From Schmidtea nova (taxonomy: Eukaryota), in the NCBI GenBank assembly GCA_044892505.1, contig CM097882.1, forward strand, positions 495,566,001 to 495,630,000: a stretch of DNA of 64,000 nt. The letters run 5' to 3'. The position numbers and the translations under genes are program-made. Positions within the stretch are counted from its first letter, which is position 1; every line of letters begins with the position of its first letter. Shown here piece by piece: positions 23,875-64,000 of this stretch. The notes below the pieces were generated by a model that ran no database searches, was not told the origin of the DNA, and was given only the letters and a program-made list of their open reading frames with translations.

Positions 23875-24389
23875 TGCTGGGATTATGGGTGGGTTTTTAA
23901 GTAATTCAAATAAATTATTAATTATTAATTGAACGACTATCGATGAGTACGTATACTAGGGATTTCCACGCCCATAACCATACATAACATGACTACTACA
24001 CGCGTATGCCCTTGACTATTCCCTACTAGTCAAGTTGGTACTGCATACGGTGGTGGAAAAATGATGGGCAGGTGAGCTTTGTTACCAAAACTACTCCCCA
24101 TTTATCTTCCCGCGGGTCCTTGCTGCCGATAGAAGGTCTTACGCATTTACATTCTAAGGATGTTCGTTTCTTACTGCATTTTATACTACATATCCTTATG
24201 ATCTATCATACGCTTTTCCCAATGACTTTCCTTAATTGATCTACAATGTAATTAATCAGTCTCGGCGTAGAAATGGTCGGTTTGAGAAAATTACGGATGC
24301 GGTTTTCTATTTCGATGATTTCCGTGTTGTTAATTTAATTTTATTTAGTAACCTCGCCCGATGAGAGACAAAATTCACACACAAATACT

Positions 24390-24395
24390 TTTATT
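24390..24395 (-). terminator. Candidate LTR polyadenylation signal AATAAA (copy at 49393-49398)
   Basis: AATAAA 40 nt after the stop of the 194-aa LTR ORF, followed by a GT-rich tract (gtatttgtgtgtg). Confidence 0.5.
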
Positions 24396-24435
24396 AGAAT
24401 ACTAAAACAGGTTGTTATTTTACATGGATGTTTTC

Positions 24436-25020
24436 CTAAGCGAATTCCAGACTAATCTCCTGGATTAACTCTGCTTCGGTTAAGGAGTTCAAGTGGTGGA
24501 TTTGTTCGTCCAGGCGCTTTGCAAATTCTCGGCGACGACGACGCTGTCGCGATCCCATTCGATGTTTTCGAAGCTGTGGGTTTATGATCGGTGCTGACGC
24601 TATTGTTCTCGGGGAATCACTGAGAAAAACAGGCAAATCTTCCGTTGTAAGAGAGGGGGCCATGATGATTCCCTCTTCCGTCCCGCAAGCGACATCTTGG
24701 TGGGTGCATTGTATCCAGCGCTGAGCCGTGATCGGCCGGATTAGCGCTCGCAATTCGGAGTCGATGTAACTTCTTGTTACTGCGTTCAGGCAATTTCGGA
24801 GTTCTCGCTGGACGGCATCCAGTTCCAATTTGGTTGTAGCCAATGCTTCCTGCACTCGCTCGAGTTTTTTCGACTGGTCCTTCATCTGTTCGGGCGAGAA
24901 CCACTTCGCTTTCAATTCATCATTGGCGACCGTGAGTCGCTTGATCTGTCGCTGCTGGTCCCTCAGCTTTCTCTCTTGAATTTGTCCCATGATTTTCTTC
25001 GAATTTTCTGAAGTCGGCAT
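24436..25020 (-). CDS. LTR-encoded 194-aa protein: coiled coil plus Arg-rich motif (identical copy 49439-50023)
   Basis: GC-rich ATG-initiated ORF inside an AT-rich LTR; heptad N-half; RKHRMGSRQRRRRREFAKR. Confidence 0.65.
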   Translation of the reverse strand: MPTSENSKKIMGQIQERKLRDQQRQIKRLTVANDELKAKWFSPEQMKDQSKKLERVQEALATTKLELDAVQRELRNCLNAVTRSYIDSELRALIRPITAQRWIQCTHQDVACGTEEGIIMAPSLTTEDLPVFLSDSPRTIASAPIINPQLRKHRMGSRQRRRRREFAKRLDEQIHHLNSLTEAELIQEISLEFA

Positions 25021-25338
25021 GTTGTCTGAAGATTATAACGATAAATTCACTGGAGGGCCTATCAACAATGTTATTTTATTTAAACAACTATTATTATTAT
25101 TAAACGAGATGTATACTAATGTTTTTAATTATTGATTTCTTTGCAAAATTATTTAACTATCTAATTATTGAAGGCTCAAAAGATTTACTGAATTAACTTG
25201 AGATTATTAAATGAATTTCCTAATGACTATAACAACTACAATACTAAAACTACATGACAACACTATAAACAAAATGAGACACTTCAGAATTTTTAAAAAA
25301 CATTTATTAAACTCAAAAATAGGTGGCCATTTATTCAA

Positions 25339-25815
25339 TTATCCATCTCCGGTCATTTTTCCCCGATACGAAAATATAGATTTAATTTGCAAATTTGTGT
25401 GGATTCCCATGCTATTGGACGAGGCTTGCTGGAAGCGGATTCTCTCAGCTTCTCGAAGGGGTCGTATGGCTGTATTGAACTTGAACCCCAATTCCTTGAA
25501 GGTAGAGGCTGGAATGAACCCCCAATAAATGACACATCTCGGGAATCCACCTTTGTCCAACATCATGATGAACCAGGCGGCGTGCCATGATTCGAATTCC
25601 TCGTCTGGAATGATTGGCCAACTAGCGCATCCCCGGTACCAGACGTGGTGCCGTGGATGGTCCCATACTGTAAATGGACAGGCGGTTTCGAGCTCTCGGC
25701 GCCATGCCCACATTTTTTGATGGATTTGCTGTAAAATCTCGAAAGGAGCCGGCTTTAATGGGCTAACTCGGGCTCGTTCTTGTCGTTTTTTGATAGTGTA
25801 TCTATGCTTAGTCAT
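25339..25815 (-). CDS. LTR-encoded 158-aa Trp-rich protein of unknown function (copy 50342-50818)
   Basis: GC-rich ATG ORF set off by AT-rich spacers; same strand as all element genes. Confidence 0.5.
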   Translation of the reverse strand: MTKHRYTIKKRQERARVSPLKPAPFEILQQIHQKMWAWRRELETACPFTVWDHPRHHVWYRGCASWPIIPDEEFESWHAAWFIMMLDKGGFPRCVIYWGFIPASTFKELGFKFNTAIRPLREAERIRFQQASSNSMGIHTNLQIKSIFSYRGKMTGDG

Positions 25816-27345
25816 GATTCCAAAACGATGCTAAATTTTATAATAGTTACAATTTACATCAATAATTAATCATAGTAAATGTTATCTCTCATCGTGATAC
25901 CCTTATTATTTGCCTACCCCTTAGACCTTAACTGAAATCAAGGGAAAACTGTCGATCGTTACGGTATGCATTACTCTCGTATCTACTTGGATTTATCTGT
26001 TTACGATCAATTTTATAGTCGAAGAAATGGTGATTTGTCTGCTTGGATTTTCAAAATATTGATACCTCAAAACGGAAGCTCTCTCACGTCATGTATCCCT
26101 AGCTTATTCGAAAACGCTCTTGTGTACCAAATGCGGTCGACATAATTTTTCTAAGGTTTATTAGACGTTTATCAAACAGCTGTGCTGTGGTGAGGGTGAA
26201 AAATTGTGCCTCCTCCCGGTTAACAAATTCTTTCATATCTTTAGGCTTTATCAAAAAATTATCGTCCCCTCTGTAGCTAAAATGATCAGAAATTAATTCC
26301 CCGGATTTGTTGGGTGTCCCATGTGCAAGTCTCAACCACTACTAACAAAATTAAGCTTTACTATTTATTTACTTTACCGTGTGTGGAGCCCTCGAGCACC
26401 ACGCCACGGACGGACACCTTGGGAACCTAAAGCTCCCAACGGCGCAAGATTAATATGATAGTTTAAATAGTTTAAATATAACATAAATCATAATGAGATG
26501 AATAATATATTATAATATGATAATGACATATGAATACAACATCAAACAATGTACCAAAAATACCTCAATTGAATTCTGAAAATTTATTGATCAAAATCGG
26601 TCTAAACGGTGATCGTCGTCGGGGCAATGTGCAATCTAATGTGAATTTTTAGTTAACGTCTAAAATTCAGTCTACTAAAGTCTCACTCTAGTCAAATGTC
26701 TAGTCTACCAAAGTCTGATTTTTTGAAAAATCTGATCAGTATTTATACTGATCAGTCGTGTCTAGACTGACCAATCAGGTTTGGCCAGTTTCAGGGTGGT
26801 TTTTCATTATTGTTCTTGATTCTAATTAATTTTTATTTTTTAGATTGTATTCTTCCTCGGAGGTCCGGTTTTCAAAAACAATTATTCAATAACAAGTACT
26901 TTTATTTGGTTTTAATTATTATTATTTGTATTTTATTTGTTTTTAGATGTCTCCTGGGCCCGTTAATATCTATAAATTCATTTATTTTTATTTATAGCTT
27001 GTACTTAGTTATTCTATATTTTTACTATATTATTCCTTTCTTTTAATAAATAAATATTCCCCTTTTTACCCTATTTTTCTCTTTTTTGTTTTAATTAATC
27101 TACTTTTATTTCACTGTTCCCTCTATTTGGCTGGCCCAACATCACTCGGGGACCCCTAAAATTGCGTCCCGCAATTAATTATACATTTACACCTATATCA
27201 TCATACATAAAAATTAAGCAGATAAATGTCAATTTACATATACACAAAGAATCACGTAAGGTGATAGATTTTATACGTGAGCACAAAGTCATATTATTGT
27301 TAAATGTAAGTGGATCATACATAAAGTGAATGTAATATATCAGTT

Positions 27346-27918
27346 TTACACAAGCTCTTTGATTTCATGATTGGTATTGGATTGGATTGGGGTTCTTTTG
27401 CTGATTGTTCGTAGTTCGTAGTGGCTTTGGATTCGGTTTAGGTGTTTTCTCATTCGCTTTTGGGTTCTGATGTCTTGTATTGTTGTTCGATTCAGGATGA
27501 CATGTTTTTGTTTTAAGATCTTCACTCGGTATGATGTTATGAGGATTGTGATCGCGATAATGGTCACGCTGAGTGCAAGGATTATTATAATTGCGATGAT
27601 CCATTTTTCTTGATATTCTATCTCTGCTTGGGCTAAGCTTTTTATGGGTTCTCGACCTTCTTTTAGGGTTTTTCTGATTGTTTTCAATTTGATTCGATGT
27701 TCATATAGGACCTGTTGAAATTTTTCATCGTTTGGGTTGTCTGATGTTATCTGTTGAAGTTGGGTGATTTCTTGTGTTGCTTCGCTGATTAGTTTATCTA
27801 GTTCTTGATAGGTTTTCTCGGGTAGGGCTCGTAGCTCCTTCTCTGTGAGTTGAAGATCTTCTCTTTGTAGGGTGATTGTTATTAGGTATAGGAATATCGG
27901 TATTCTGAGCTTTTTCAT
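27346..27918 (-). CDS. Accessory 190-aa predicted membrane protein (signal-like N-terminus, coiled coil, TM)
   Basis: MKKLRIPIFLYLITITLQ hydrophobic start; WIIAIIIILALSVTIIAITILITSY TM followed by a basic tail. Confidence 0.75.
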   Translation of the reverse strand: MKKLRIPIFLYLITITLQREDLQLTEKELRALPEKTYQELDKLISEATQEITQLQQITSDNPNDEKFQQVLYEHRIKLKTIRKTLKEGREPIKSLAQAEIEYQEKWIIAIIIILALSVTIIAITILITSYRVKILKQKHVILNRTTIQDIRTQKRMRKHLNRIQSHYELRTISKRTPIQSNTNHEIKELV

Positions 27919-27999
27919 ACTGTTTTCTTTACAGATAGATCAATACAATTTGACACTACATTCATACAATTATTTACAAAAATATATTTTCCGCTTTAT

Positions 28000-29061
28000 T
28001 TACACAATCGTCTCGTTTGGTTCGTAGAAACCTTCGTCCTGAGGCTCTACTTGGTTCGTGGGGAGTGGTATCCAAACAACCCTGCTCCTCCACATTTCGA
28101 CTTCATCTCGATACATGTGAGATATCTGGATCTCCTCGTCCAGCAAATATTCTAGGTAATTTGCTTGTTCTGTTAATGTTTCTATTTGCTTCTCTAATTC
28201 GATTACTTTTGTCTTTTGTTCGTCTTCCTTCATCATTTTTGTTACGGCTGCCGTTATACTTGCTTCTTTGGGTATTACTGATACTGTTACTCGTTTCTGT
28301 TTCAATTCTTCGTTTTCTTTCATCAAATTCGTTAAATTTTCCTCATAACTTTGTTTCTCTTCCTTTAACCTTTCTCTGGTTCTTTTTAGCTCTATTTTCT
28401 TCTGGGTAATCACTCCTTGGTAACCATTTATATCTCTCTTCATCTCTTCTTCTTTCTGATTCCATATTCCGGTGAGCATAGATTTCAGTTGTTCTTGATT
28501 AGCTAGTTCTTCTCCCATTCTTTGAACTTGATAGGTTAGTCCTTTAATTTTCTTTGCTTGTTCGCGGATAAATTGCTGTCTTTTTGTATTCCATCTTTTA
28601 TTTAGCACTTCCTGGTTGATTTTTTGCTCTAATTCGTCTTTTAGTTCATCGATCTCTTTATATAATTTCCAGTCATCACTATAAGCTGTCCTTTCTATTA
28701 TTTCTCTAGCTTTTTCATAAGATTCTTTCGCTTCTTTCTTCCAGTATCTTGCTTGTTCTGTAATCGAATACATCTTGTGTTCAGCTTCCATCTGCTGTCT
28801 GTCTCTTTCCTCTCGTCGCTCTTTCATCATTCTCTGGTAATATTCCTTTTGTTGTTGTAGCATTTTGTATACTTCTTCTACTTTTTCTCGACTTCTTTGA
28901 TTTGATCTTTCAGTTTCTTTTAATAATTCGGCTTGTCTTTCTACCTCTTCTTGCTTTCTATAATATGCATTGACCAATATTTCTATTTGTTCTAGATGAT
29001 CGCTAATCGCTTCTGCTTGATGCGTCGTAATTTCCTGTAAGCATACCTCGATATTTCCCAT
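28000..29061 (-). CDS. Accessory 353-aa long coiled-coil protein
   Basis: E/K/Q/R-rich heptad sequence over nearly the whole length; ATG preceded by TTATAG. Confidence 0.8.
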   Translation of the reverse strand: MGNIEVCLQEITTHQAEAISDHLEQIEILVNAYYRKQEEVERQAELLKETERSNQRSREKVEEVYKMLQQQKEYYQRMMKERREERDRQQMEAEHKMYSITEQARYWKKEAKESYEKAREIIERTAYSDDWKLYKEIDELKDELEQKINQEVLNKRWNTKRQQFIREQAKKIKGLTYQVQRMGEELANQEQLKSMLTGIWNQKEEEMKRDINGYQGVITQKKIELKRTRERLKEEKQSYEENLTNLMKENEELKQKRVTVSVIPKEASITAAVTKMMKEDEQKTKVIELEKQIETLTEQANYLEYLLDEEIQISHMYRDEVEMWRSRVVWIPLPTNQVEPQDEGFYEPNETIV

Positions 29062-29174
29062 TGCTATAATTACAGAAAAAAAATTTTAATCGGTTTATAT
29101 ATCAGTTATTTTTGTTTATATAATAATTTTTGGGTAATTAACTGTACATATTATTTACATGATCACTTTCCTTG

Positions 29175-30557
29175 TTACGTCAACCATCCTTTTCTATCCG
29201 CTTTCTCATTCCTTTCCATTTCTATGTATAGGGTGTCTGCATATAATCGTTCCCATAGGCTTTCTTTCGTTATAAACATCGGTTCTCCCGCTGCTAATCC
29301 ACATTCTGTGGTTGGTTTCTCGCTTGTACTCGCATGTTTCTCTGTCTCAAAGAATTTTTCCACTGGTTTTGTTACACTTCTGATTCTTACAATGACTCCT
29401 ACTTTCAAGGGCCATTCTACTAGGTCGTCGTATTCTCCTTTACATAGCGAGAAAAATATTGACACATGTGTTCCTCGTCCTCTTCCGTCTCCATTTGGGT
29501 ATAGCTTCAATCTCACTTTAGCTCCGTTTCTCCATAAATAAAATGGTGGGCTTATTACTGCTGTTTTCGTCATATTTCTGGCCTCTGTTAATTTGTTTCT
29601 AAAATCTGTCACTTTCCACACATATGGTGCGATTGGTAACTTTTCCTCGGTATCCTGGGTGAGTTTGTTGTACTGGATTTTCATTCCTTTAGCCAGTTCT
29701 TCGATAGCTTTTATCTTTTCCTCCATCTTTTCTCGTGTTAGTTCGAATTGCTCTCTGGTTTCCAACAGTAGGTTTACCATTATCTTGTGTGACTCTATTT
29801 CTCTTTCTAATTTTTTGATTGTTTGTTCGGTTTCCTTTGTTGCTTCGTTTGTCATTTCCGCATGCTTTAGCAATGCTTCCTCCAGATGTTGTTTCATGGT
29901 TTTTTGCGTTCTTTTCTCCATACATCCCTGTTTGTTATAAGGGCATTCCCTTGGTTTCTCCGTGCACACTTTCCAATGTTCTTGTAATTTTACTTCTACC
30001 GTTATCTCGCATTCGTTTGAACATATTCCTACATATTGTCTACATACTTTCTCCTCTTTTATATTCAGGTGTTCTTCTTCGATCTTTCTCCTCGTTTCTC
30101 GAGTTCCACAATATTCGCATAGACTTTCCTCTTCTTTACATTCATCTTTGTGCTGCTCTTTATTCTTTATAGTTATTTTTTGTTGGCATTTGTTACATTC
30201 AGTTCTCTTCTCTTCGCAGTTCTCCAGATGGTTCTCGAGATCGCGTATTTGTCCTTGCCATATACATGGTTGATTTATACATTCGGTTTTCGTGTTCATG
30301 ATTTCTCTCTGAGTTGCTCTATCTGGTCCGGTTTCTTCGAATTTTATTTGTCCTTCTTTGCATTCTGGACATTCTGGTGGTCTTTTCCTACTTAACTCGT
30401 GTATGCATTTGGTACATACTCTGCATCCGCATAAGGTTTGTCTTGGTTTCAATATTATGTTTTTACAATTTACACAAGTGAGTCTCTGACTCCATTTCCT
30501 GTTCTCGGCTCTCAAAATTTCGATTATCCGCTCTTCGGCTTTTCCTTCTGTATTCAT
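29175..30557 (-). CDS. Intronless TRAF2-like protein (RING, TRAF zinc fingers, coiled coil, MATH)
   Basis: RING CVNC..CGCRVC..C..CPEC; DRATQREI; CIWQG; MATH WKVTDF..SPPFY..LYPNGDGRGRGTHVSIFF..WP. Confidence 0.93.
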   Translation of the reverse strand: MNTEGKAEERIIEILRAENRKWSQRLTCVNCKNIILKPRQTLCGCRVCTKCIHELSRKRPPECPECKEGQIKFEETGPDRATQREIMNTKTECINQPCIWQGQIRDLENHLENCEEKRTECNKCQQKITIKNKEQHKDECKEEESLCEYCGTRETRRKIEEEHLNIKEEKVCRQYVGICSNECEITVEVKLQEHWKVCTEKPRECPYNKQGCMEKRTQKTMKQHLEEALLKHAEMTNEATKETEQTIKKLEREIESHKIMVNLLLETREQFELTREKMEEKIKAIEELAKGMKIQYNKLTQDTEEKLPIAPYVWKVTDFRNKLTEARNMTKTAVISPPFYLWRNGAKVRLKLYPNGDGRGRGTHVSIFFSLCKGEYDDLVEWPLKVGVIVRIRSVTKPVEKFFETEKHASTSEKPTTECGLAAGEPMFITKESLWERLYADTLYIEMERNEKADRKGWLT

Positions 30558-30648
30558 TCTACAATGATATATACACTTGATTTGTTATCTATTTTTTGAT
30601 TTTTCTTGTTTTTGTTTTTACATATTTACAATTTTTCGCTTTATTTAT

Positions 30649-31005
30649 CTACGGCTCGTTTGTTGAATCTGGTTCTGGGTCATTTTCCGATCTGTTTATT
30701 GCCCAATTTGTCCATCCATCCTCTGCTTCTTCTGTCTCTCCCATTGTTAAACGGTCTATCTCTATTGCTTGTCTCTGATTTATGTCGCTCATCACTTGAT
30801 TCTCTCTGGTAAGTTGCGTTATCAATCTCTGTTGCTCCTCGATTCTGTGGAGTTGTTCAAAACTATTATTATAACTTTCGGATAACAAATTCTGTTTCTC
30901 AATTAACTGATTTTGTAGTGAGTTGATTGTTCGTATTAACATGTCACACTGGGCTTTCCATCGCATAGCCATAGTAGTTTCTGCTATTTCTTCCTGTTCG
31001 TTCAT
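30649..31005 (-). CDS. Accessory 118-aa coiled-coil protein
   Basis: ATG ORF between the pol stop and TRAF; Q/E-rich heptads. Confidence 0.65.
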   Translation of the reverse strand: MNEQEEIAETTMAMRWKAQCDMLIRTINSLQNQLIEKQNLLSESYNNSFEQLHRIEEQQRLITQLTRENQVMSDINQRQAIEIDRLTMGETEEAEDGWTNWAINRSENDPEPDSTNEP

Positions 31006-31130
31006 TTTCTAAATTATATACATTAATCGTTTTCTCGATTTCTCTTTTTATATTTTTATAATATCGATACCCATACTATTACGGTAATGCATTGTTATTT
31101 ACACTATTATTTACAGTCATATCCCGCCTC

Positions 31131-34100
31131 CTATATCACCATCACTGTCTTTCCTTCGTATCGCTCTTCATCTTCTATTTGTCTCCAAAATTCTTTACCT
31201 TTCGTCCTCCTTTGGAATTCTTTATGTACTTCTTCCGGTAATTCTATACTGTAGTTCATAATCTTTATATCTGGCCAATGTGTTATTGGTTTCTTGTTGA
31301 ATACATCATATATCCATATTATTAATAATACTGTTATTACTGGAATAGTTGCTGCTAGTATTCCTAGACCAATTAGTTCTCTAACTTGTTTGTTTACGTC
31401 CATCTTCGTAATTTCACTCTGGTTAATCATTGGTCCGTATTGTCCCTTTAGTTTATTTAGTAGTTGTTCTCGTTCTTGTTGTTTTCTTTTAACTTCTTTA
31501 ATTACTTCTTCCGGCGTCCATCTTGCGTAAGGGTCTATTACTACTTGTTCCGCGTCCATTTGTTTCGTTGTCTGACTTAATTCTTTAAATTCGAGTTTTC
31601 TCACTTTCCCTTTGGACGTTGAGTTTACCGGTGTGTAGTACGTTTCGCATCTTTCCTGCTGATTTCCCAATATGTCCGTCTTTTCTATCGCACATATCTC
31701 GTATTCGCTATTGAATTTCAGGTTCCTGATACTTATTTCCTCTTTTCCTTTCACGTTTCCACAGTCTCGTGGCTGTCTTTCCCTTTGTTTCTGAACTATT
31801 ACCCAACATATTTCTAACGTTTTATTGTCTATTCTCCATAGTATAAGAGTTGCTGTAGTATTCTTTTCGGTTTTTATTTGTATTTCTTGGTTTTTCTGTT
31901 GTCCATTAGGTTTAAAAGTAGTGGTATACCTCGCTTTTCCTTTGTTCCGTTGTCTTCTGCTTTTTCGCGTTGTCTTTCCAATTCTTGTTCTGGTGGGTGT
32001 TTTATATAATTTGCATTCCAATTCACTTACTGTTATTTTGTCGCTTTTCCTGATCAGGCATATTTCGTACGTTTGATTGCTTTCTAATCCTTCGATCTGT
32101 ATTGTGGTTGTTCCTCTGTTTGTTCGACATTGCGGCGGTGTATTCTGGTTTGTTTTCTTTTCCTGCTTCTTCCAGCATACGCCTTTGACGTCCGGTTCTA
32201 TTCCGGTTAACTCTAACATTATAGTTGTTCTCCGTTTGGTGCGTATATTTTTTCTTCTTCTTCTTATGAACTTTATTGTTTCCCCAGGTTGAAATGTTTT
32301 ACAAATTGTCGTTCCTTTCTTGTGTCTTTCTTTTTCTAGTAAACATAGTTCATACGTCCTGTCTGCTTTTACTTCTGATATCTTGGTTACTTTATTTGTT
32401 TTCCTTTTCCGACTCGTCTTTATTTCGCTTACGCCAATTTCTTCGTTGTTTCTGGCCCAACACTTTGGGTTGGTATTTTGGGTGTCGTTCATCTCTGTTA
32501 CTGCCATTGTGTCAATGTCTATCCCTTCTTCTAACCGTTTTAACATTGTTAATATGAGTGCTAAACACAGTAATTCTGTTTGGTAGGTCACTCTTTCGGT
32601 CTCGTTTGTGGTTACTCTTGCTTCGGGCCTGTCTATGGTAATTCGTATAGTTGGCGTTGTTCGTCTGTCTATTGTCTGGGGTTTCTTGTTTTTTGTTCCT
32701 TGTGTCTCTGTTCTTCCACACTTTCCTACGACATAGTCTCCTTTGGATGACTGCTGTACTGTTATGGTTACTTTGGGCGTTAGGTAGTTTGCACATGCGA
32801 TTGTGTTGTGTGATCTTGGATTCTTTTGTTTTCTGATGGTGCATATTTTGTACCAAGTATCTAGCTCTAAGTCATCGATCTCTATGATTTCTTGTTCGTA
32901 TTCTGAGATCTTGCAATCCATTGGACTATTTTGTCCCGATATTTTGTCCTTTTTTGACCAACATACTCGTTCGATTCCTTTTGCGTTTCCAATTTGTATT
33001 GTCGCTCTTTCCTCACATATCATTCCTTGAGTTGGACTAATTAAGGTCATGATTACCGTTAGTAATAATAGTTCTGGTTTAAAGAATGGGTTTATTGTTT
33101 GTTTGTAGCTTGTTCTTTTTGCTTCGTTTTTATTTTTATAGTTGTTGTTTCTTTGTTTCCCAAATTCATTTTTCTTATCATTTTTCTCTGTGTCCCTTCC
33201 TTTCTCTTCACTGTCCTCTTCATCTGATAACTCATGATCCTCTGGATTTTCTCGAGTACTATCGTCGTCGTTTCCTGTATTGTCGCCTCCCCTTTGGTCG
33301 TTGAAAATGTCGTCCTCGACATTAATTGCTTCTATCATTTTTTCATACGTTATGGTTGTGAGTATACTTGCTTCATATTCTTGTGTTACTGCCTGCTTAG
33401 GTATTTCCTTATCGGTTAATTTACAATCTAGAATCTCTTTCTTGGCTTTTATCCAATTATTAAGGTACGTTTTCATTAGTTCTTTCCATTTGTCCGTACG
33501 TTCTGTTTCCTTTGGGTTGTTTGTGAATCGCAAATCTTTTCTTCTCATGAAGATTTCTATTATCTTTGGCCATTTGTTTATTATTAATGCACACTTTATA
33601 TATAAATTTTGGCCTTGTTCCATGAACTCGTTGATCCTAAATGCTGGTTCATTGGTGTTTGGGTTCATCCAATTGAGTATTGCTTCGGTTAGTTCAGCGT
33701 TATGCATCATGGAATGTACGCTAGCTTTTTTAACTGTCCTTGTAAGGTATTCTATTTCCTCCTGATTTGTGATTGTTTTTATGAAATTTATCACCTCCCA
33801 ATTGTGCGCTAATAACGCTACGTCTAGTATTGAGCTGTCTTTGTTAGTTCTTCCCATGAGTCCTGCACCTGCTTCGTACAGTTCCTGTAACACTCGGGTT
33901 TTTGTGTTCGCTCTTGCTGCAAATATCATGAGGGTATCTCCCTTTTTATCTTTCATGTTCATGTCACTTCCGCAATCTTGCATCAACCGTGCAATTTCGA
34001 CTACCCTCCTCTCTTTTCTTGCTCGTAAGGCTCTATGTATTGGCAATACTCCATTCTTTGTTAATAAGAAAGTCACTGGCATTTCTCTTTTTATGATCAT

Positions 34101-37100
34101 CATATCGTTTTCATTGTAAGTTCCTTCCGCGTATGCGTGTACCTTTTCCACAATTGCTCCGAGTATCTCCAGTGTATGTTTAGAATTTTCGAATTCTGGT
34201 AATAGTTCTTTTGCTTTGTCCTGTATCGCATCTAACCTTTCTTGATATGGTACCTCTGCGCTGAAAAGTGGTGTCAATTTCCTTTTGCTTTCTCTTTCCT
34301 TTTGACTTAGGAATTGTTTGCATTTTTCGGGGTGGTTTAATATGTCTATTAGTTTGTCATACTCTTCCTCCACCGTTTTGTATTTATCCTGAAAATTGGA
34401 TATATCTTTGTAAGTTATCGTCTTGGTTAGCGATTTTGCACACCATTCCCTAATTTTCCTGAATAATGCTTCTTTTTCACTTTCGAATTTACACTCCTCT
34501 TTGTTTTTGGAAATTGTGATATTTCTTCTGTCCAATAATATTAACAGTGTTTTCTGATCACAAACTAATTTTAATAGGAATTGTAATAACGCGTTTTGTC
34601 CTTTACTGTATACTTCGTTTATATTTAATACCCATGTATCATTTTCGGATCTTTTCCATTTTATCAGCTTGCGTATTGTTTTGCAGTTACCGATTTTTAT
34701 TGCCTCCTTGATTATATCACCTTTGATCAGTTCGTCTATTTCCCAAGTGGCCTTCTCGATTATTTGTTTGAGCATTATCTGATTTGAGCTCCATATTGCG
34801 TGATTCAAGACTGTTTTGTTTTCTCTATCGCGTTCCGTCCAGTTGAAATCGGCATTTATCAAAAGGTCTATTATTGCTTTATCCGATTTGTAGATGGCTG
34901 CTACCATTAATGGTGTTTCTTGTTCGCTATTCCCAAAACCAAGGTGTTGGTTTGTTTCCTTTGCGATTTTTAGAAATTCTTTTACTCTCTCTACTTCTCC
35001 CCATTTTATGGCGTTATGTAATGCTGGTTGTCCTCCTATGTCTTGTAGTGAAAGTATTTCTGGAATTTTCTCCAATAGTTCTGAAATGACTGGTTTTGTT
35101 GGTAGTCCCCTTGCGTAATCACTAATTATCAATTGTATATCTCTTAATATATCGTCTCTGACATGCCATTTTCCCATTATTTCTCTGGCTTTTAGTACAA
35201 TTTCCTTGTTTCTTTTTTCTTGTTGCTTGTTTTCTGCTTCGGTACTTTCATCGGTTGTTCTGAGCATATTTATCCTGGCTGTCTGGGATCTTGTTATTAT
35301 TCGTTCTTCTGGCACTGTGGTTATTGTTTTTGGTACTTTCTTACATCTGCATGTATTAACGTATATTGGTCGTATCAATGGTCGATTAACAAGTTTTACC
35401 TTCACATTGTTTTCCTTTTTGTATATAACTTCGTAAGGGCCTTTTCCTGGTCTTTGTAGTTTTTTAACGGTTCCTGGTATTATTTCTGGGGTTTCTATCA
35501 TTACCCAATCTCCGGGTTTAAGATCATTTGTTTTAACATTTTTCTTTTGATCGTGTAGGTCCTTGTAACTTTCTTGATAAAACTTTATGTTTAGTTCTGC
35601 TGTCTTCCATATCTCTTGCATTCGTTCTTTGAATTTGGTGACGTAATCATCTTCCTCCATATATTGAGACAAGGGTGGTTGATATTCAAGATCTATTGGC
35701 ATATTGCATTCCCTTCCATACATTAATTGAAATGGACTCAATTTTGTTGCTGCGTGTATCGACATTCGGTATGCCATTAGACATAGCTTTATGTACTCAT
35801 CCCAATCTGTTTGGTGTTTGCTTACATAATTGGATAACATTCGAATCAATGTGCCGTTAAATCTTTCCGTTTGTCCATTAGTTTGCGGATGATATGGTGA
35901 CGTTCGTAATTTGGCTATTCTGAAGTAATTTGTTACTTCATCTAGTATTTCGCTCATAAAATTTGTTCCTTGATCTGTTAGTATTTGTTTCGGGGTTCCG
36001 TATCGACAACATATTTCCTCTACTAAAATTCTTGCTACGGTCTTTGCTTTTTGATCCGGCATCGCAAATGCTTCAGGGAATTTAGTCAAATAATCCGTTA
36101 TTACCAATATATATTGATTCCCGTTCAAACTTTCTGGCAATGGTCCTATTACATCCATCGCAATGGTAGTCATTGGTTCCGCTGGTATTGGCATGGGTTT
36201 TAAAGGATTTTTCCATTTCTTCCCACTATCCTTTCTTGTGGCACAAGTTAAACAGTTCTTTATCCATTCCTTTACGTCTTCGTCCATTGTTGGCCAATAA
36301 TATTTTTGTCTCATGCGATCTAATGTTTTCTTATCGGACATGTGTCCTCCCAACTTTCCGTCATGGTATTGAGTTATTATCTCTTTTCGTCTATTACTTG
36401 GCAGACACATTAATCGTTTTTCTCCATCTTGTATTAACAACCATCCTTTTTCTATTGTGTATCGATGTTGGTATTTCCTCATGTGTTCTTTTAACTCCGC
36501 ATTGTCTTTGAATACATCCATATTTCGTGAGCTTAGGAATTCTATGATGGGTTTTAGTTCTTTATCCTCTTGCTGATCTTTCTTTAACTCACAGAAATCC
36601 AAATCCTCTGCTATCACTATGCATATTCTTTGCACTTCTGGATCTGTTAGTTCTGGAAACGTCAATCTTGACATACAATCCGCGTTGGCATTCGCTTTCC
36701 CTGATTTGAATTTTATATCTGGTGAATATTCTTGTAATTGCATTGCCCATCTCATTAATCTGCTGGATGTTTCCTTGTGTTGTCCTAGCCATACAAGTGG
36801 TTGATGATCCGTGGTTATGCATATAACGTGTCCCCACAATAGATATTTAAAGTGTTTTATTGCTAATATTATTGCCAATGCTTCTCTTTCCGTTACTGAA
36901 TAATTCTTCTCGTGTTTCTTGAATGTTCTGCTATAGTATCCGATTACTCGTTCTTTACCTTCGTCATCATATTGTCCTAACACTGCTCCTGCTGCATATC
37001 CACTTGCGTCGGTTGCGAGTAAAAATGGCTTCTTGAAATCCGGGTGAACCAATATTGGTGCAGTTATTAGCTTATCTCTCAATGTTTCAAAGGCGGTTTG

Positions 37101-40100
37101 TTGTTCGCTTCCCCATATGAATGATACGTCTTTCTTTACTAGCTCTTGGATTGGTTTTGCAATTCCTGCGTAATCCTTTATGAATTTCCTATAATAACCG
37201 CATAATCCGAGAAATTCTTGGATCTGCGTTATCGTCTTTGGTACTGGACATTCTTTTACTTTATCAATGTTTCTGGGATCTGGTTCCTTTCCTTTTGCGG
37301 ACACAATATGTCCTAAGAATGTCACTTTCTCCTTTGCCCAATCGCATTTCGATGGTTTGAGTTTGAGTTTCCATTGTCTCAATCTAACAAATACATCTCT
37401 GATATCTTGGATGTGTTGTTCAAATGTGCTTGAGTAGATCAGTAGGTCGTCAATGTAAACCATGCATTGTTTTATGCCGTGGGTAACGAAATTCATACAT
37501 CTTTGAAATGATGCTGGCGCATTGGTTAGTCCGAATGGCATTTTCCTAAATTGGTACAAGTCTCTTCCAATGGTGAAAGCAGTTTTCTCTTTGTCTTCCT
37601 CCTTCATTTTAATTTGCCAGTATCCGCTTTTCAAATCCAATGATGTAAAATATGCCGCTCCTTGTAATGTCAATAACATCTCGTTGATGTCCGGTAATGG
37701 GTATGTATCCCGTTTTGTTACCGCATTTAATCTCCGATAATCAATACAAAATCGTTGTGTTCCGTCTTTCTTTTTCACCATTACAACTGGGAATTGCCAC
37801 GGTGAGCAGCTTGGTTCAATTACTTCCGCATCTAACATCTTCTGTACTTCCGCTTCTGCTACCGATTTTTGCGCTTCAGCTAACTTGTATGGTCTTAACG
37901 CAATAGGCGTTTCGTCTGTTAGTGGAATCGTATGTAGTGTGACGTCGCATGTCCCTAGATCTAAATCGGATGCTGCGAATATGTCTTTATATTCTATCAG
38001 TAATCTTTCTAGCTGCTTCTTTTGATCCTCATTTAATAGTTGGCTATCAATGTTCCAAGTGGGTTCCTCCTCTTTTACTCCTTCTTTTATTGGTATTTCG
38101 ATATCTATCATTGGAGTTAGTTTACCCAATCTTTCATTTTCATAAATTATTTTATCCTCTTCATCGAAATTTACTACATTTATTGGGATTTCTCCGTTGT
38201 CATTCGCACTCACTAGTCCCCTTGCCATTGGCAACGACTTTCTCTTTTCAAATCTTTTACTGGGTTCAAAGATCATGTCACCTTCTATTGTAGGATCTAT
38301 TTTTACGAAACATATTTTCTCTCTCCGTGCTGGTACGATTATTTGTTTCGAACTTGTTACTTTTGCTTCTATTGCGCATATCTGTCCTGTCCTATCCTTC
38401 AATCTCATTGTTCCCAGGTCAATAACTATTTCTTTAAATAATGCTGGCATCAGATCCGTGCCTATAATGCATGGTACGCTTAGTGCTGGTATTACTGCTA
38501 CGTATGTTTCGATTTCCGTGTTTTGATGTTTTATCTTTACCCACCATCTTCCGGCAACTTCTACTACTTCTTTACTGCATGCTATTACGTGAACGTTGGT
38601 TCTCTCAATATCCCGTCTTTGTTCTTGTGGTATCCATTTTATATCTATTGCTGAGATATTTGCTCCTGTATCAATCATCGCTTCTATTTCCCTTCCGTTA
38701 ATTTCGATTGTTGTAGTTAATACTGGACCGGTGTTTGATGACATTACTGCAATTGTATGTGAGTCTCCTTGCGGATCTACGCTTCTGCACCGTCTCGTTC
38801 TATAGTCTTCTGGTATCATAGGATATATGTTTGTCATCGGCATCATTTGCATTGTATTTTGTCTCATCCCTGGTGTTGGTTCTTGGTACATGGTTGGTGG
38901 GGGTGCGTAACACTTCCACATTTCCGCTGGATTCTTTTCGACATACTGTGGTACTTGATTTTTAACTACTTGACCTCCTTCGTTATCATCATCATCGTCG
39001 TCACTGGAATCGTCTTGGGTTCTGTACCCTTTCATTCTTTCCCATAGTCCTTTTCTCTCTCTCTTTAGTTGTTGTCTTGCTTGCTCGTTATTCATTATCT
39101 TTTTAAATTTTCGTCCCACCTCTTCATCGGTTCCTTTCATTTTTGCCAGTATTTTTAGGAGTCTCTTTATTCGGTGAATATCTTTTGAATGACCGTGTAA
39201 TACCATTGTTTTAGCCAAAAATGGTAAGAATCCTACCACCAATTTCCAATTTACTTTCTTTTCTCTTTTATAGATGTCAAAACAGGCTAACATTTGCGTT
39301 ATTATTACCCGTATTATTTGTATAATTAGTATAACACCAAGTATTCCTGCCATCATTTGTCCAAATATTAAAAATCTTCCCCACATCGCTTTCATCATGT
39401 TTTCCGTTGCCTTCTTAAAGTGGGCTGGTGACAATAATAATTCGTAATTTGGTCCACCTTGGTAATTTGTTCCTCCTGTTATTGTTACAATGCTGGATAA
39501 CACCGCTTCTCGTCTTGCCGGAAATAGTATGTTTTGTCTTGCTGCTTCTAAATCCTTTGCACTATAGAATCCCATATTGCTTACATCTACGTCTTTAAAT
39601 TTTCTTCCTTTTGATAGTTGCATTAATTCAAATTCTCTTGGTGCTGGTACCTCTGTTCTTGACGGAAACATAACCCAATTTCCGTCTGGTTTTTGGTATA
39701 ATGGTCCATATGCGTTGCTACAATTGAAAGGGTTTGGTTCGAAACTTACTGGATTTATGATTCTTGTCACTGGTTGTACATATCTTACTTTCCCTTTATA
39801 TTCGATTTCTAGTTCGTTAGTACACTGACCTGGTTGTAGTTTTGTCATTGTCGCTACCTTCGCATTTGTCTTTTTACATATGTATACGTACATGACCTCT
39901 CCGACTACTCTTCCAAAATGACCTTCTCTTAATGGTAATAGTGGCATTGCACTATCCGGGTTTGTGATTGCTACCGCTAGTTTTGTCTTTAATATTTCCC
40001 TATTTAATATGCAATCGTTGTTTATTAAATCGTAATACACTTTTTGTAGTGACGCTTGTCCTCTATGGAATAGAAAATCCATTTTATTGTTCATGTAAAG

Positions 40101-43100
40101 GTGTAATTTAACATCGTTCGTGTGTACTTTGCGTTTCGCACTAGGTACTTCTTGTTTTGATACAAAAATGCCGGGGTAGTTGGTTTCCAACATGGCTACT
40201 CCGCATTTCAAGGCTGTTTTTCCTTTTACAAACCTCATTCCGATATCTGCATCTGAGGTAATTAGTACCGTTGGTGTATTTCTCATTTTAATTTGTTTTT
40301 CTTGTGTTCGGGTTTCAATCTTTTTCTCTCCCCGTACGGTGTCTTGAAGTATTTTTCCTCTTGCTGCCTCGTCTTCTTCTTCCTCTTGGAAGGTTTTCCC
40401 TTGTATCTCATCGAATTCTGCTTCCTTTAACAGTTGTAGTTGACATTCCTTTCCTCGTATCTGGTATGTTAAGGTTGACATACCGGTTTGGCAAGTGTTT
40501 GACTCGATTTTGCACATGGGCAGGGTTTTCATTTCTCCCGTTGTTGGATCGAAGAATGCCTCGTACGTCTTTAATTCTACTGTATAGGTATCTATTACCA
40601 CTAGGTTTGTTGCTGCTACTCCGAATATTGGATATGTTGCTCCTTGGCAGTACCCTTCTCCTCCCGTAATAGCTCCTGCTACATAATATGTTTGTTGTAA
40701 TATTACTCCCGTTTTTCCTCTTATCTTTACTCTATCTCTAGTCTCTACTTCTCCATGTTTGAATAATTTTTCACAGTCTTCTCCTTGCAGCATTACCGAT
40801 TCTCTTTCCGTTCCTGGCATCACGATTGCTGAATAATGGCGGTGCCCACAATAAAAAGCAAATCTGGTTTTATAAACTTTGCATTCTCTGACCATTGTTC
40901 TTATCAGTTCAGCTTCCTGATATACGTGGTATAATTGTCTCTTTTTTAGTGTTTTTAGCTCCGTTGGGGTTGCGTCCTTACATTGTTCTGTCCCTCGTAG
41001 TGAATATTTCTCACCTAATGCCATTTGATCACAATCGAATACTTCAAATGCTGTTGCTCCGTCAGTACTAATCATCCATATTAACATCATCATAATGATA
41101 GAACTCAAGTTTAGTGATGATTTCCCGTTTCCTGTTCCCGACTTTTCCTTTTCCAATTCTCCCAATATCTCTTCGAATTTCCTTTTCATATTTTTGGCTT
41201 GGTTTTTCTTTTGGTTCGTTTTTGTGAATGTTTCCCATCCTCCTTTACTGATGATGTACGGTTCTATTTCTTTCTCTATAATTTTGGCTGTATTCTTTAT
41301 ATGTCTTTCGAGTGCTGTAGGTTTCAGTCGACCTCTACTCAGTGTCAGCAGATTGTAAATGGTGTATGCCATAGCTATTAAATATTTGTTATCCGTCTCT
41401 GCTCCTTCCGTTAACTTCTTTATCAACATCGTGGTTCCTTGCCAATCTAGGTGGTTTGACCTTGTCTTCTCTTTTATTAGTTCTGGTAGGATTGGTGCGA
41501 TGGCGCTATGCAGTGATTTCGCCCTTTCGCTTATTTCATTTATTCTCCACCATTTCTTTAATTCCGGATCGATTATTGCCAGTATTTCCATTAACATCTT
41601 TGATATCCATTCCTCGCCTTGGTATGTTTGTGTTGTTTCTTTTTCTTTCGTTTCGGCTATTTTATTTAGTTTCTTTAAACACAAATCCCATTGATCCCGT
41701 CTTTTTTCCTCTCTTGATTTTATAACTACATTTGCTGGATCTATCTTGGGTCTACCTCTAGGTCGTTTATCCATTGTCGTGCCCGTTTCTACTAATCTTG
41801 ATTCTCGTCCAGTTTCTTCTGTGACGTCTCTTGGTTCATTGGCTCTTTCTTCTAACCATCTTTCCATTTCTTGTGTGAATTGTACATTTTCTACATTTGC
41901 CCTCCTTGCTTCCTCTTCTGCTATTTCATTTACTTCTTCTATTATTATTTCTTGTTCGACTTCATCTTCGGTGTTGGTTACCGGTATTGCTGTTGGTAAT
42001 TCTTGAATTCTTTCGAAAATATTATCATCTTTCTCTTTTGTTAGCTCTATTAACTCTTCTAACATATCATCGCTATCTGTAAAAATTTCGTCTACATCGT
42101 ATGGTTCTGGTGGTGTTCTTTCTCTTGTCTCTCTTGGTGTTGTTCTAGCTTGTTCTGAGCTTGTTCCTGGAGTCATTACCGATTTCATTGGGCTCGGCGT
42201 ACTCATACTTCCTTTTGGTTTCTTTTCTTCTTTCAATTTCAATGGTTGGCCTACTATTGCTGCCACTGTCAATGTATTTGCGATATCTAATTGCGCTGGC
42301 GTTATTCCAATTTCCAAGTTGTTATCTAATGATCGTCCTTGGTGTTGTAAATGGAATGGTGGTTCATATCTCAATTTCTTTTTAATGTCCCGAACTTTCT
42401 CCGCTATCCCTACCCAAAACTCTTCCTTTTCCTGGTTCGGATATACTATTCTTAGGTGTACTTTCTGTGGCGATTCCTGCGAGAATTCTTGGTTTCTCCA
42501 TTTTTTAATTACGTGATCCAATTGTTCTGGACACCACTCGTTAACTCTTTTGTATTCGGCGATTGCGTTTGCTACTTTACGCAGGCATGTTATGTCTTCT
42601 CCATTAACTACGAAAAAATCTGCGAGACCTTTTACTACTTTTCTCTTGCCGTGCGCATTGGTTTTTAATATTTCGACAAATTCTTCTGTTTTTTGTTTCT
42701 CTCTTTCCAACCACATGGTTGTTGTTTCAGGTCCGTCTAAATCCGCTGGCATGGCTTTTCTTGTTACCATACAGACTCTTCCGGTTTCCGGTTTGTGATC
42801 GTCTTCTATGCCTATTTCATATTCTTCTTCGTATTCACCTGCTTTTGGTTCCCAACATTTTCCTCGTTCGTTCCATTGTTTTTCTACAGGTGTTCGTAAT
42901 CGTCTGTTGAGATTGAGTTCTTCTAATACATCTTCCCATTCTGGCCAAATCCGCCAATTTCGATAAATGTCTACTATTCGTTGTAATTTATGCACAACTT
43001 CTTTTTGTCGTTCCCGTTCTCTTTTCTCATCCTTAGCAGCTTCTCTTGGTGTATCGTCCATTCTGATAACGTGGATGGTTTGGTGATTATCCCATATACC

Positions 43101-43928: not shown

Positions 43929-44000
43929 GAATTTCCGATAGTGTTTCTTGTCGATGAATTCCTCATTATATATTACTTCTAGTGCGTTATCTAATAATTT

Positions 44001-46514: not shown

Positions 46515-47068
46515 CGGGATTACTTTTGTATACTCAATTTTCCTGTCTTATCGTATTCCGATTCTTTTCTTCCTTGGTTGCTTGGTTTGGTTTGATTGAT
46601 TTATCTAAAATACAAATGTCACTTCAACGATACTCTATTGTTATCGTTGCGCTTTTATTCCCTTTTTACGGGACTTCTCATTACTGGGTTTCTATTATTT
46701 TTCCCCATTCCCAGATTCCCCTTTATTTAAGTCTATTTAAATTATCTATATACTAGTCACAATTATCTATTTAGTCATAACAATTATCTATCGGTTATTA
46801 AAATACATCAATTATTTTTCCCGCGGTCTCCCAATTTATTTGTCGTTCGAACGCTCTAATTCCCTGAGTCATTTGACTCGATTATTATTTTATCATCTCT
46901 TTATCTTTCTCTCTGCTAGCCTCTAATTATTAATTCTGCCGGTCTTTCCGGTCAGCTCTTATTTCTCAATTCTACTTGCATGCATTATTTTAGGTCGCAT
47001 AATCAGCTTTACTCGCATTTCTCAATTCCTGGTGCGCACTATTCTCATTATCGTCGACGATCACAACT

Positions 47069-47587
47069 CTGGGCCTATATTCCCTCTGTTGTTATTTCTT
47101 ATCACTTGCAACCCTGGGCCTATATTCCCTCCGTTGCTACTCAACAATTGTAACCCTGGGCCTATATTCCCTCCGTTACTATATATCCGGATATCCCTAT
47201 TGGCTCCTTTGGCCTCTAATTAATATCAATTATCTCAAATGGCTCTTATGGCCTCAAATTCATATCTCAACTATCTCAAATGGCTCTATTGGCCTTAAAT
47301 TATATCTCAATTATCTCAAATGGCTCTATTGGCCTTAAATCATATCTCAATTATCTCAAATGGCTCTATTGGCCTTAAATCGTATCTCTCAATAACGCCT
47401 AGCTAGGTCATTCAATATGGCTCTTTGGCCTCAACCCTTTGTTTCAAGGGACAACCCGCTGATAACCCTTTGTTTCAAGGGACAAATTCTAATAACCCTT
47501 TGTTTCAAGGGACAAACCGCTGATAACCCTTTGTTTCAAGGGACAAATTCTAATAACCCTTTGTTTCAAGGGACAAACCGCTGATAA
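47069..47587. repeat. Three tandem-repeat blocks in the 5' leader
   Basis: CTGGGCCTATATTCCCTC x3 (47069, 47114, 47156); 40-bp unit x~4 (47221-47388); 30/31-bp unit AACCCTTTGTTTCAAGGGACAA x5 (47433-47587). Confidence 0.93.
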
Positions 47588-48060
47588 CTTTTCCTTAACC
47601 GGTTAATCGTAATTCTTAACTTCGCTAGCGACTACAATTTCTCAGCTGAGTTCTCTCAATTTCATGCGAGCTGATTATGCACCTCTTATTTTTCTCTATA
47701 ATTCCTCGATTCTTTGTTTTATTACTAATTCTTTCGCTGATCAGTCATAATTCAATTTTTATTATTTTCTCTGCGCGCATCTTACCTCATCAGGGTTTTC
47801 CCTATTTCTCTCCCCAACCAAAATATACAAAAAGATCGCGTTGGTCTACTAATGCGGGATGTGGTGATCAATCACATCACAAAAGCTTTCCAACATTTGC
47901 GATTGGCCCCTTTCTATATACCCCGAGTGGGTTGATCAACTGGTACCTCCCAATGGGTGCTTAACGGACTACTTGACAGTAGCTCAAAAATTAATTAACA
48001 TTGTTGATTGCTCCCCTGACTTTGTCATTCGATACAATATATTAACACTCTAAATATTTA

Positions 48061-48853: not shown

Positions 48854-48871
48854 ATCCCGGCTGAGCCCCCA
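48854..48871 (-). promoter_or_regulatory. Primer binding site, tRNA-Pro type
   Basis: TGGGGGCTCAGCCGGGAT, 6 nt after the 5' LTR; 16/18 identical to the classical tRNA-Pro PBS TGGGGGCTCGTCCGGGAT. Confidence 0.85.
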
Positions 48872-61518: not shown

Positions 61519-61568
61519 AGACAGTTCTAGTTGGGTGAATGAGATTCTTCTTTTTATTAGATCTTCTG

Positions 61569-63999: not shown

Positions 64000-64000
64000 A

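Follow-up and report, generated by a model that had tools for sequence, protein, structure and literature searches.

The closest described systems are the giant LTR retroelements of the Burro/GYPSM1 type, which have an internal region of about 20-25 kb and a total length near 30 kb (PMC6431247). Burro1/GYPSM1 of Schmidtea mediterranea carries a MATH_TRAF_C domain inside a polyprotein of 4,873 aa, and a Burro-like element of Dugesia (Girardia) tigrina carries this domain in a separate, upstream accessory ORF (PMC6431247). That Burro carries a TRAF-C domain is thus already known (PMC6431247). BURRO1 is silenced by piRNAs, and smedwi-2 RNAi leads to its appearance in differentiated cells (PMC8532177). 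TRAF homologs on mobile elements are also represented by megalocytivirus ORF111L and the TRAF-like proteins of giant viruses. On the host side, 99 planarian MATH transcripts have been counted, and planarian TRAF counts have been taken as an expansion of host immune or regeneration genes (PMC6109357). When the literature was searched for a full-length TRAF gene in a retroelement, PMC6431247 was the sole paper found on point; Grohme 2018, Jurka 2007 or Repbase may already describe such a gene in Burro-2, -3 or -4. The additions made here are a full-length TRAF as a separate 3' gene, its probable origin inside a clade of triclad TRAFs, and a repeated pattern in the spacers that surround it.

A giant Burro-like element with a TRAF gene downstream of pol

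The DNA analyzed, hereafter the window, is a stretch of 64,000 nucleotides from Schmidtea nova. It harbors a Ty3/gypsy element of 28,270 bp (23875-52144, minus strand) with an internal region of 21.7 kb, the features of which are listed from the 5' to the 3' end of the element.

48878..52144, minus strand: 5' LTR of 3,267 bp, TG...CA, with 2 mismatches to the 3' LTR
52145..52148 (right copy) and 23871-23874 (left copy), unstranded: 4-bp target-site duplication, from the sequence
48854..48871, minus strand: 18-mer resembling a primer-binding site, beginning 6 nt inside the 5' LTR boundary, from the sequence
48061..48522, minus strand: 5' accessory ORF, 153 aa, with a C-terminal IAP-type RING of the XIAP/cIAP kind (zf-C3HC4_3, E 8.6e-12; XIAP RING, E 4.7e-11)
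47064..47588, unstranded: tandem-repeat block between the RING ORF and gag (repeat scan)
44001..46088, minus strand: gag with Retrotrans_gag and CCHC knuckles, 695 aa counted from its first ATG, the frame being open up to 46547 (Pfam, ORFs)
31131..44000, minus strand: env-pol, a 4,289-codon frame in phase with gag (Pfam, PDB, Foldseek, Atlas)
41184..41681, minus strand: weak Bcl-2-like region (PF00452, E 0.11; best Foldseek E 0.10 on a model of pLDDT 51.5)
39267..40292, minus strand: best stretch of the env/fusion glycoprotein, upstream of the protease in the same frame (PF24664, E 5.4e-68)
30649..31005, minus strand: 3' accessory ORF 1, 118 aa, no family above cut-off (ORFs, Pfam)
29175..30557, minus strand: 3' accessory ORF 2, the full-length TRAF gene, 460 aa (ORF call, Pfam, PDB, AlphaFold2, Foldseek)
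28000..29061, minus strand: 3' accessory ORF 3, 353 aa, charged, coiled-coil-like, no family (ORFs, Pfam)
27346..27918, minus strand: 3' accessory ORF 4, 190 aa, short-tailed, with a single TM segment (aa 107-125) (ORFs, TM prediction)
23875..27141, minus strand: 3' LTR, 3,267 bp (LTR pair comparison)

The order PR-RT-RNase H-IN and a Ty3-type RT, together with the TG..CA ends and the target-site duplication, identify the element as Ty3/gypsy, and the best PDB match of its RT-IN region was to Ty3 Gag-Pol (E 5e-121). The element is young and recently inserted. The 18-mer next to the 5' LTR presumably corresponds to a tRNA-Pro-like primer-binding site. Inspection by eye revealed no clear purine run beside the 3' LTR, which is preceded by a GGGG/CCCC palindrome; the 64-kb window contains no tRNA gene, and Rfam returned no match within the element at E 0.5. 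The env-pol frame encodes, in this order, ubiquitin-like and Bcl-2-like regions (both weak; Pfam E 0.054 for the former), a Monjiviricetes-type fusion glycoprotein (env), PR, RT, RNase H, IN and ankyrin repeats, and ends with a signal-like stretch, a possible FN3 ectodomain that we treat as a lead only (Atlas score 0.87), and a TM segment. The Foldseek matches listed for the Bcl-2-like piece were Bcl-2-family entries at E 0.1 or worse, and the PDB sequence search yielded no match either for this piece or for the first 1,000 aa of the frame. Likewise, no homolog of similar length to the 353-aa ORF was found at E 0.01 among 4,860 candidates, and the 190-aa ORF gave no usable Atlas match.

Comparison with Burro1/GYPSM1 and the D. 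tigrina element was made against the published description (PMC6431247). By that description, the present element resembles Burro1/GYPSM1 in being a giant LTR element (28.3 kb here), in the position of env in frame between gag and pol, in the Ubl and BCL2-like motifs preceding env (weak here), in its ankyrin and tandem repeats, and, in part, in its TRAF-C and apoptosis/ubiquitin cargo, of which MATH and ankyrin are strong here. It differs in that its polyprotein frames show no MATH match, the complete RING-5ZF-coil-MATH gene lying separately, 3' of pol; in that profile searches of the element found an IAP-type RING but no BIR domain; and in that gag and env-pol are separated by an in-frame stop in the window copy. 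The D. tigrina element is close in its ORF1 (5,140 aa, compared with 5,138 codons from stop to stop for gag plus env-pol here), but its accessory ORF is described as upstream with MATH alone mentioned, whereas the TRAF gene here is downstream and complete. We thus describe the element as a giant Ty3/gypsy of the Burro/GYPSM1 type in which an intact, full-length TRAF is the second of four closely spaced genes following env-pol. The proposal in the initial annotation that a retroelement carries the TRAF holds, the ORF being located between two LTRs of 3,267 bp.

The stop that closes gag is an in-frame TAG (44001-44003, minus strand), past which the env-pol frame continues in phase. The TAG may represent either programmed readthrough or a mutation. 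Since it separates gag from env-pol and no stimulatory or stable RNA fold was found downstream of it (z 0.08), this copy may not be autonomous. For the same reason, namely the TAG within the gag-env-pol ORF, the element is referred to as Burro-like and not assigned to a named Burro family. A related gag-env-pol protein in the databases (P0163; 3,865 aa) is unbroken and devoid of a TRAF.

The TRAF ORF encodes every module of a TRAF protein

The TRAF ORF (29175-30557, minus strand) starts with ATG, stops with TAA and encodes 460 aa with neither interruption nor intron. Its modules are as follows.

30360..30476, minus strand: RING, aa 28-66, with eight Cys ligands (CGCRVC ... CPEC) (alignment and ligand check)
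29862..30281, minus strand: five TRAF zinc fingers, aa 93-232 (alignment and ligand check)
29649..29873, minus strand: TRAF-N coiled coil, aa 229-303 (AlphaFold2 helix and heptad check)
29217..29624, minus strand: TRAF-C/MATH domain, aa 312-447 (Pfam, PDB, Foldseek)

Pfam identified MATH_2 at aa 312-447 (E 5e-21) and TRAF-mep_MATH (E 1.8e-18), zf-TRAF remaining under the family cut-off at E 7.8e-5. Searched against PDB sequences, the N-terminal 160 aa matched the RING-ZF regions of TRAF6, TRAF5 and TRAF2 (E 1e-12 to 8e-10), and the MATH region matched TRAF5 (E 1.8e-22), TRAF3 (3.1e-22) and TRAF2 (3.1e-21). An AlphaFold2 model built from a 22-row alignment (mean pLDDT 87.8, pTM 0.42) displayed a 75-residue helix at 229-303 followed by a beta-sandwich; the Foldseek matches listed for it were all TRAF structures. 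Cys or His occupies 8 of 8 RING and 20 of 20 zinc-finger ligand positions. In the coil, the hydrophobic share at a/d positions was 0.59 against a background of 0.29 (best of 7 registers), and the MATH core is intact (GDGxG, HxS, D377, P415 and AxGxP), with G420 where most relatives have Asn. The initial annotation had placed all TRAF modules in one intronless ORF, and the RING, five zinc fingers, coil and MATH domain are indeed all there.

With vertebrate TRAF2/3/5 the protein shares the five zinc fingers, the MATH core motifs and the linker D-x-A-x-x-R-E, and with TRAF2 in particular a CxxC at the last pair of RING ligands and a polar E2 face. It differs from them by a Cys in place of the His ligand, a shorter coil region and the absence of the TRAF2 RING insertion (compared with 3knv). 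Because the scores against TRAF5, TRAF3 and TRAF2 are nearly equal, the earlier description "TRAF2-like" can be retained as a type label only: the MATH domain is of the TRAF2/3/5 type, but TRAF2 is not singled out. Orthology to TRAF2 is not supported, the protein lacking the TRAF2 insertion and being placed by the tree with a clade whose named members are triclad proteins. Compared to viral TRAFs, whose carriers are dsDNA viruses, the element protein is longer (460 aa as against 206 and 296 aa for the two named megalocytivirus matches) and only 12-29% identical in structural alignments.

The element TRAF nests within a triclad clade with a Cys-type RING

Phylogeny, one of the checks proposed at the outset, placed the window TRAF in a clade with 17 relatives in a FastTree analysis of 44 rows (support 0.967); support was 0.923 once three A-rich rows were removed and 0.847 on removal of further long branches. 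A quick IQ-TREE run on 58 rows recovered a matching 10-row group (SH-aLRT 97) and flagged the window TRAF as a long branch of atypical composition. Four of the 17 relatives are named, all from triclads: Dugesia japonica TRAF2-like A and Dendrocoelum lacteum TRAF-2, -4 and -5. These share with the element protein the clade, the RING-5ZF-coil-MATH architecture and the CGC RING, but they are 26-34% identical to it and host-like in composition, whereas the element TRAF is A-rich. The highest identity to any relative was about 35-38%. The trees thus show, with moderate support, that the element TRAF nests inside a fast-evolving triclad TRAF clade in which most members have a CGC RING. Together with the anatomy of the element, this placement points to a triclad host. 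No additional relatives came from contig searches: none of 121 pattern matches was confirmed among metagenome contigs searched with the element-like TRAF alignment, none of 98 among those searched with P0035, and none of 21 among viral contigs searched with the window TRAF.

The His-to-Cys replacement noted in the initial annotation is real, CGCRVC (aa 43-48) aligning with the CGHRxC of TRAF2/5/6, but it is not specific to the element. The RING pattern was matched in 112 of 162 relatives, with His at this site in 78 and Cys in 22; within the clade, CGC is found in 14 of the 17 relatives, Phe in one, and two lack the site. Inheritance is thus the most likely origin of the swap in the element. 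CGC also occurs beyond the triclad clade, in a TRAF3-like protein of a starfish, suggesting that the change arose more than once. An origin of the CGC RING as an innovation of the element was rejected on both grounds.

Composition distinguishes element-like from host-type TRAFs

AT skew on the coding strand ranges from 0.26 to 0.46 in the ORFs of the element (0.445 for the TRAF, 0.378 for pol), compared to 0.06-0.08 in the hAT and KRR1 frames. At the protein level, the residues K, E, R, T, I, Q and M make up a share of 0.546 of the TRAF and 0.492 of pol, against a mean of 0.383 (sd 0.042) across 91 TRAFs; this residue set was picked after inspection of the data, and the label "host-type" used here rests on it. 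Among the 17 clade relatives, the share is element-like in P0014 (0.53), P0030 (0.54) and P0041 (0.59), intermediate in P0067 (0.48), and host-like in the other 13 (0.38-0.44). The three element-like sequences are also the closest group to the window TRAF (support 0.986, a value that composition may inflate).

Capture from the expanded triclad TRAF family is the most likely source of the gene, which would have acquired the A-rich composition of the element afterwards; a single capture followed by long residence is the simplest reading. The converse, namely that the triclad TRAF expansion originated from or was driven by the element, which would have seeded host loci such that many annotated planarian TRAFs are its copies or descendants, would account for the grouping of P0014, P0030 and P0041 with the window TRAF and for their shared composition, for the lack of an intact MATH in two of the three, as expected of decayed copies, for planarian TRAF contigs being mostly partial (PMC7586133), and for the 99 MATH transcripts counted (PMC6109357). 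It would also suit P0025, a host-type TRAF whose N-terminal stretch resembles the tail of the element integrase (45% over 38 aa, pairwise E 2e-5), a hint of additional connections between gypsy elements and TRAFs. We nevertheless consider it improbable given the host-like composition of 13 of the 17 clade representatives and the intermediate one of another, the nested rather than basal position of the A-rich group, and the presence in the clade of TRAFs from both Dendrocoelum and Dugesia. The more modest proposal of the initial annotation, that retroelement-borne TRAFs explain part of the planarian expansion, survives in reduced form. With element-like composition in only three of 17 relatives, elements would explain a minority of the family's diversity at most, at the 50%-identity level; the relatives are representatives at that level, so that a numerous element subfamily would count once. 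The simplest reading is that element copies, which are probably multicopy, add to the planarian MATH count without explaining most of the diversity.

Element-borne TRAF copies in DNA contigs

Contigs covering the TRAF were available from four runs of one study, representing at most three samples that may be the source of the assembly itself; contigs only were used. In all four DNA runs, near-identical contigs with a depth of about 300-430 covered parts of the TRAF, and bridging contigs ran from the TRAF through the spacer into the 118-aa ORF (30299-31034, 3 differences). Summed depth was 415-2,480 in TRAF bins and 26-174 in four flank bins, figures that do not translate into copy number. The element-borne TRAF is probably multicopy. 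More divergent contigs, with 27-37 differences in 207-275 nt (about 10-14%), also covered parts of the ORF and indicate that diverged element subfamilies exist. Among the differences listed inside the ORF, the best-supported substitution (29835) falls on the third position of a Lys codon. Within the zinc-finger region, an insertion of one base after 30120 was seen at depths of 361/824, 261/617, 11/710 and 0 across the four runs, and gap-free contigs span the same place.

That the TRAF is a neutral passenger, a host mRNA transduced recently and intact merely through the youth of the copy, deserves consideration in that the LTRs differ at 2 of 3,267 positions and any ORF in such a copy would still look intact. 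A recent transduction is nonetheless hard to reconcile with an identity of about 35-38% at most to the nearest relative, with a composition that has converged on that of the element, with the contigs about 10-14% diverged over parts of the ORF, with a spacer pattern shared between the TRAF and its neighbors, and with the report of MATH_TRAF_C in Burro-type elements of two species (PMC6431247); we regard it as very improbable. Conservation of all 28 zinc-ligand positions and of the MATH core despite the shift in composition argues for selection on the protein.

Repeated spacer motifs suggest operon-like expression

The four genes following env-pol are separated from it and from one another by short spacers, each of which has an 8-mer, TGTAAATA, soon after the upstream stop and a YAG immediately before the downstream ATG.

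31006..31130, minus strand: spacer 1, 125 nt; from stop to TGTAAATA 16 and 28 nt, from YAG to ATG 3 nt
30558..30648, minus strand: spacer 2, upstream of the TRAF, 91 nt; from stop to TGTAAATA 19 nt, from TTGTAG to TRAF ATG 1 nt
29062..29174, minus strand: spacer 3, 113 nt; from TRAF stop to TGTAAATA 16 nt, from TTATAG to ATG 2 nt
27919..27999, minus strand: spacer 4, 81 nt; from stop to TGTAAATA 22 nt, from CAG to ATG 1 nt

The element strand has six copies of TGTAAATA, all of them within these spacers or across the adjoining stop; a second TGTA follows closely in each of the four, and a copy with one mismatch is found 14 nt past the stop of the RING ORF. In shuffled spacers (20,000 each), the 8-mer occurred within the first 40 nt in 0.5-0.8%. 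A YAG precedes all five accessory ATGs by 1-3 nt; of the other internal ATGs, 42 of 485 have one, as do 6-10% of the spacers when shuffled; the gag ATG and the first pol ATG have none. Both patterns were first spotted by eye, and the joint values of 1e-9 and 3e-6 therefore overstate them. The 8-mer would presumably fit binding sites of Pumilio, CFIm (UGUA) and forkhead proteins.

In flatworms, the spliced-leader (SL) acceptor is UUNYAG, and same-strand genes with spacers of up to 300 bp qualify as operons (PMC12582326); the length distribution of operon spacers in Macrostomum has its peak near 100 bp (PMC8629364). The spacers here, at 81-125 nt between genes on one strand, are within the 300-bp limit. 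YAG is present at all five acceptors and the strict UUNYAG, read by eye, at two (the TRAF and the 353-aa ORF). The recurrence of TGTAAATA after four stops and of YAG before every accessory ATG suggests operon-like expression, possibly through SL processing; cis-splicing from a leader donor, for which one donor-like site near 47787 is a candidate, and internal promoters are the alternatives. For SL processing of accessory genes in LTR elements, the nearest cases found in the literature were an Echinococcus TRIM and Cer1 of C. elegans, a gypsy element with an SL1 trans-spliced subgenomic mRNA (PMC3315495). Cer1 differs in having one spliced mRNA, as opposed to a row of four cistrons here whose processing is predicted from sequence.

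Predicted role of the element TRAF

Taken as a whole, the locus is on balance best explained as a young element carrying a captured triclad TRAF that would be expressed from its own spliced mRNA and act as an adaptor or decoy, with a bias towards cell survival. An ancestral element would have taken up the mRNA of a host TRAF, and the gene would have resided there long enough to adopt the A-rich composition of the element strand. The TRAF would be translated from its own subgenomic mRNA, generated by cis or spliced-leader splicing at the acceptor-like site that precedes its ATG by 1 nt. Its product would then trimerize through its coil and MATH domain and join host TRAF complexes as an adaptor or decoy, and, together with the IAP-type RING and the Bcl-2-like domain of the element, might tilt TNFR/innate signaling towards the survival of cells expressing the element.

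The role of adaptor or decoy in host TRAF complexes is likely. At the positions of I72 and L74 in TRAF6, the alignment places N30 and K32 in the element TRAF, much like TRAF2; the polar character of these residues suggests that the protein alone is probably a weak E3. Ubc13 binding is lost in the I72D/L74R mutant of TRAF6, and a linker-helix Arg enables TRAF5 to complete a TRAF6 dimer (PMC5702613). That Arg appears to be kept as R84, which would support RING heterodimers. Several host-type members of the clade are also polar at the L74-equivalent position, and the argument from the E2 face is for that reason not specific to the element. Classical dominant-negative TRAFs are RING-deleted. The suggestion that the element protein might be a signaling mimic or a dominant negative thus loses its second half in the classical sense, since every module is kept, and an adaptor or decoy fits the sequence better than either a K63 ligase working by itself or a dominant negative formed by truncation.

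Retention of every module and of all eight RING ligands would also agree with an active E3 or positive mimic that switches on NF-kB/JNK-type signaling and thereby drives LTR transcription or host-cell proliferation, possibly by acting on one of the element's own membrane proteins in the manner of EBV LMP1. LMP1 offers a precedent (PMC3697994). Of the element's products, two are predicted to cross the membrane once, and one of these, the 190-aa protein, carries a stretch with PxQ in its tail (aa 177). This stretch fits only the looser PxQxx[TS], however, missing both PxQx[TSD] and PxQxxD, and the E2-contact positions of the RING are polar. A predicted complex of three TRAF coil-MATH chains with the 190-aa tail, computed without the custom alignment, scored 0.25 and 0.14 against a mark of 0.34, which speaks neither for nor against binding. 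We hold an active E3 to be unlikely and retain the adaptor or decoy as the preferred role.

The pro-survival direction of the effect is a guess prompted by the IAP-type RING and Bcl-2-like domain that the element also encodes. This direction is made doubtful by ISKNV ORF111L, a viral TRAF acting on death signaling that promotes apoptosis (PMC3352826). A more ambitious reading joins these strands: host SL trans-splicing at the ATG-adjacent acceptors, guided by a conserved UGUAAAUA past each upstream stop, would resolve one LTR transcript of a cargo operon into mRNAs for the captured TRAF and three accessory proteins; the TRAF, the IAP-type RING, the Bcl-2-like region and the FN3-receptor-like ectodomain would be the parts of a TNFR/cytokine survival-pathway mimic encoded by the element; and the element TRAFs would form a distinct subfamily within the planarian expansion. 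In this full form we find the proposal rather doubtful.

Implications for planarian TRAF biology

The published guess that Burro elements meddle with apoptosis and ubiquitination (PMC6431247) becomes, with this locus, a testable claim about one intact gene, and the spacer pattern predicts an expression route for genes located downstream of pol in a 28-kb retroelement. If a subfamily of TRAFs rides on Burro-like elements, planarian TRAF counts, RNAi targets and expression results would need to be split between host and element, for which the A-rich composition signature may serve as a quick first filter.

Coding frames and accessory genes of the retrotransposon

Four features of the Burro/GYPSM1-like Ty3/gypsy element concern its coding frames and accessory genes:

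44001-44003, minus strand: in-frame TAG separating gag from env-pol
46089-46547, minus strand: open acidic stretch of 153 codons without an ATG, 5' of the gag ATG
48061-48522, minus strand: stand-alone IAP-type RING ORF, directly 3' of the primer-binding site
Spacers within 27919-31130, and 48047-48060, minus strand: spacer pattern of the accessory genes, with TGTAAATA after stops and YAG before ATGs

Taken together, gag and env-pol amount to 5,138 codons, nearly the length of ORF1 (5,140 aa) in the Burro-like element of Dugesia (Girardia) tigrina (PMC6431247). The TAG between the two frames may reflect either readthrough or mutation. The acidic stretch upstream of gag may be accessed by splicing or from a non-ATG start. 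No BIR match was found in the IAP-type RING ORF. Between the accessory genes, TGTAAATA recurs 16-22 nt 3' of each stop and YAG 1-3 nt 5' of each ATG, a pattern that, judged from sequence, may correspond to operon-like or alternative-acceptor expression.

Abundant core of the LTR

Over segment 24005-24305 of the 3' LTR, also present in the 5' LTR, contig depths add up to about 25,000-44,000. This is ~10x the depth of the remainder of the LTR, and loose ends were numerous; the segment is a core that the LTR shares with a far more abundant repeat. An Rfam match was not found for it.

Other repeats and transposons in the window

60328-64000, minus strand: a further gypsy element, diverged in sequence
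17597-22076, minus strand: tandem array (units of about 850-1,020 bp) with KRR1 KH-domain fragments
704-2358: reverse transcriptase (RT) frame of 465 codons (863-2260) between inverted repeats
13610-15423 and 52526-53354, minus strand: hAT/Spin-type transposase fragments

After the RNase H/integrase region of this second gypsy element (46% alike at about 63300-64000) come three A-rich ORFs (141, 177 and 444 aa), the longest of which had no match in a Pfam search. The KRR1-fragment array contains a 174-bp duplication. The inverted repeats around the RT frame (about 160 bp) share 94% identity, and by eye 704-2358 is possibly a Penelope-like element.

Receptor-like and TRAF-linked sequences

31134-33071, minus strand: C-terminal end of the env-pol frame, in which a signal-like stretch leads into a possible FN3 ectodomain and then a TM segment with a 60-aa tail

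For the possible FN3 ectodomain there is a lead from the Atlas, scored 0.87. The start of the tail closing the frame may resemble a Box1 motif, and the layout of this end is possibly that of a cytokine-receptor mimic.

In P0025, a database TRAF relative of host type within the triclad TRAF clade, residues 15-52, at the start of the model, resemble the integrase tail of the window element (E 2e-5). Either fusion in the gene model or an intermediate stage of capture could account for this start.
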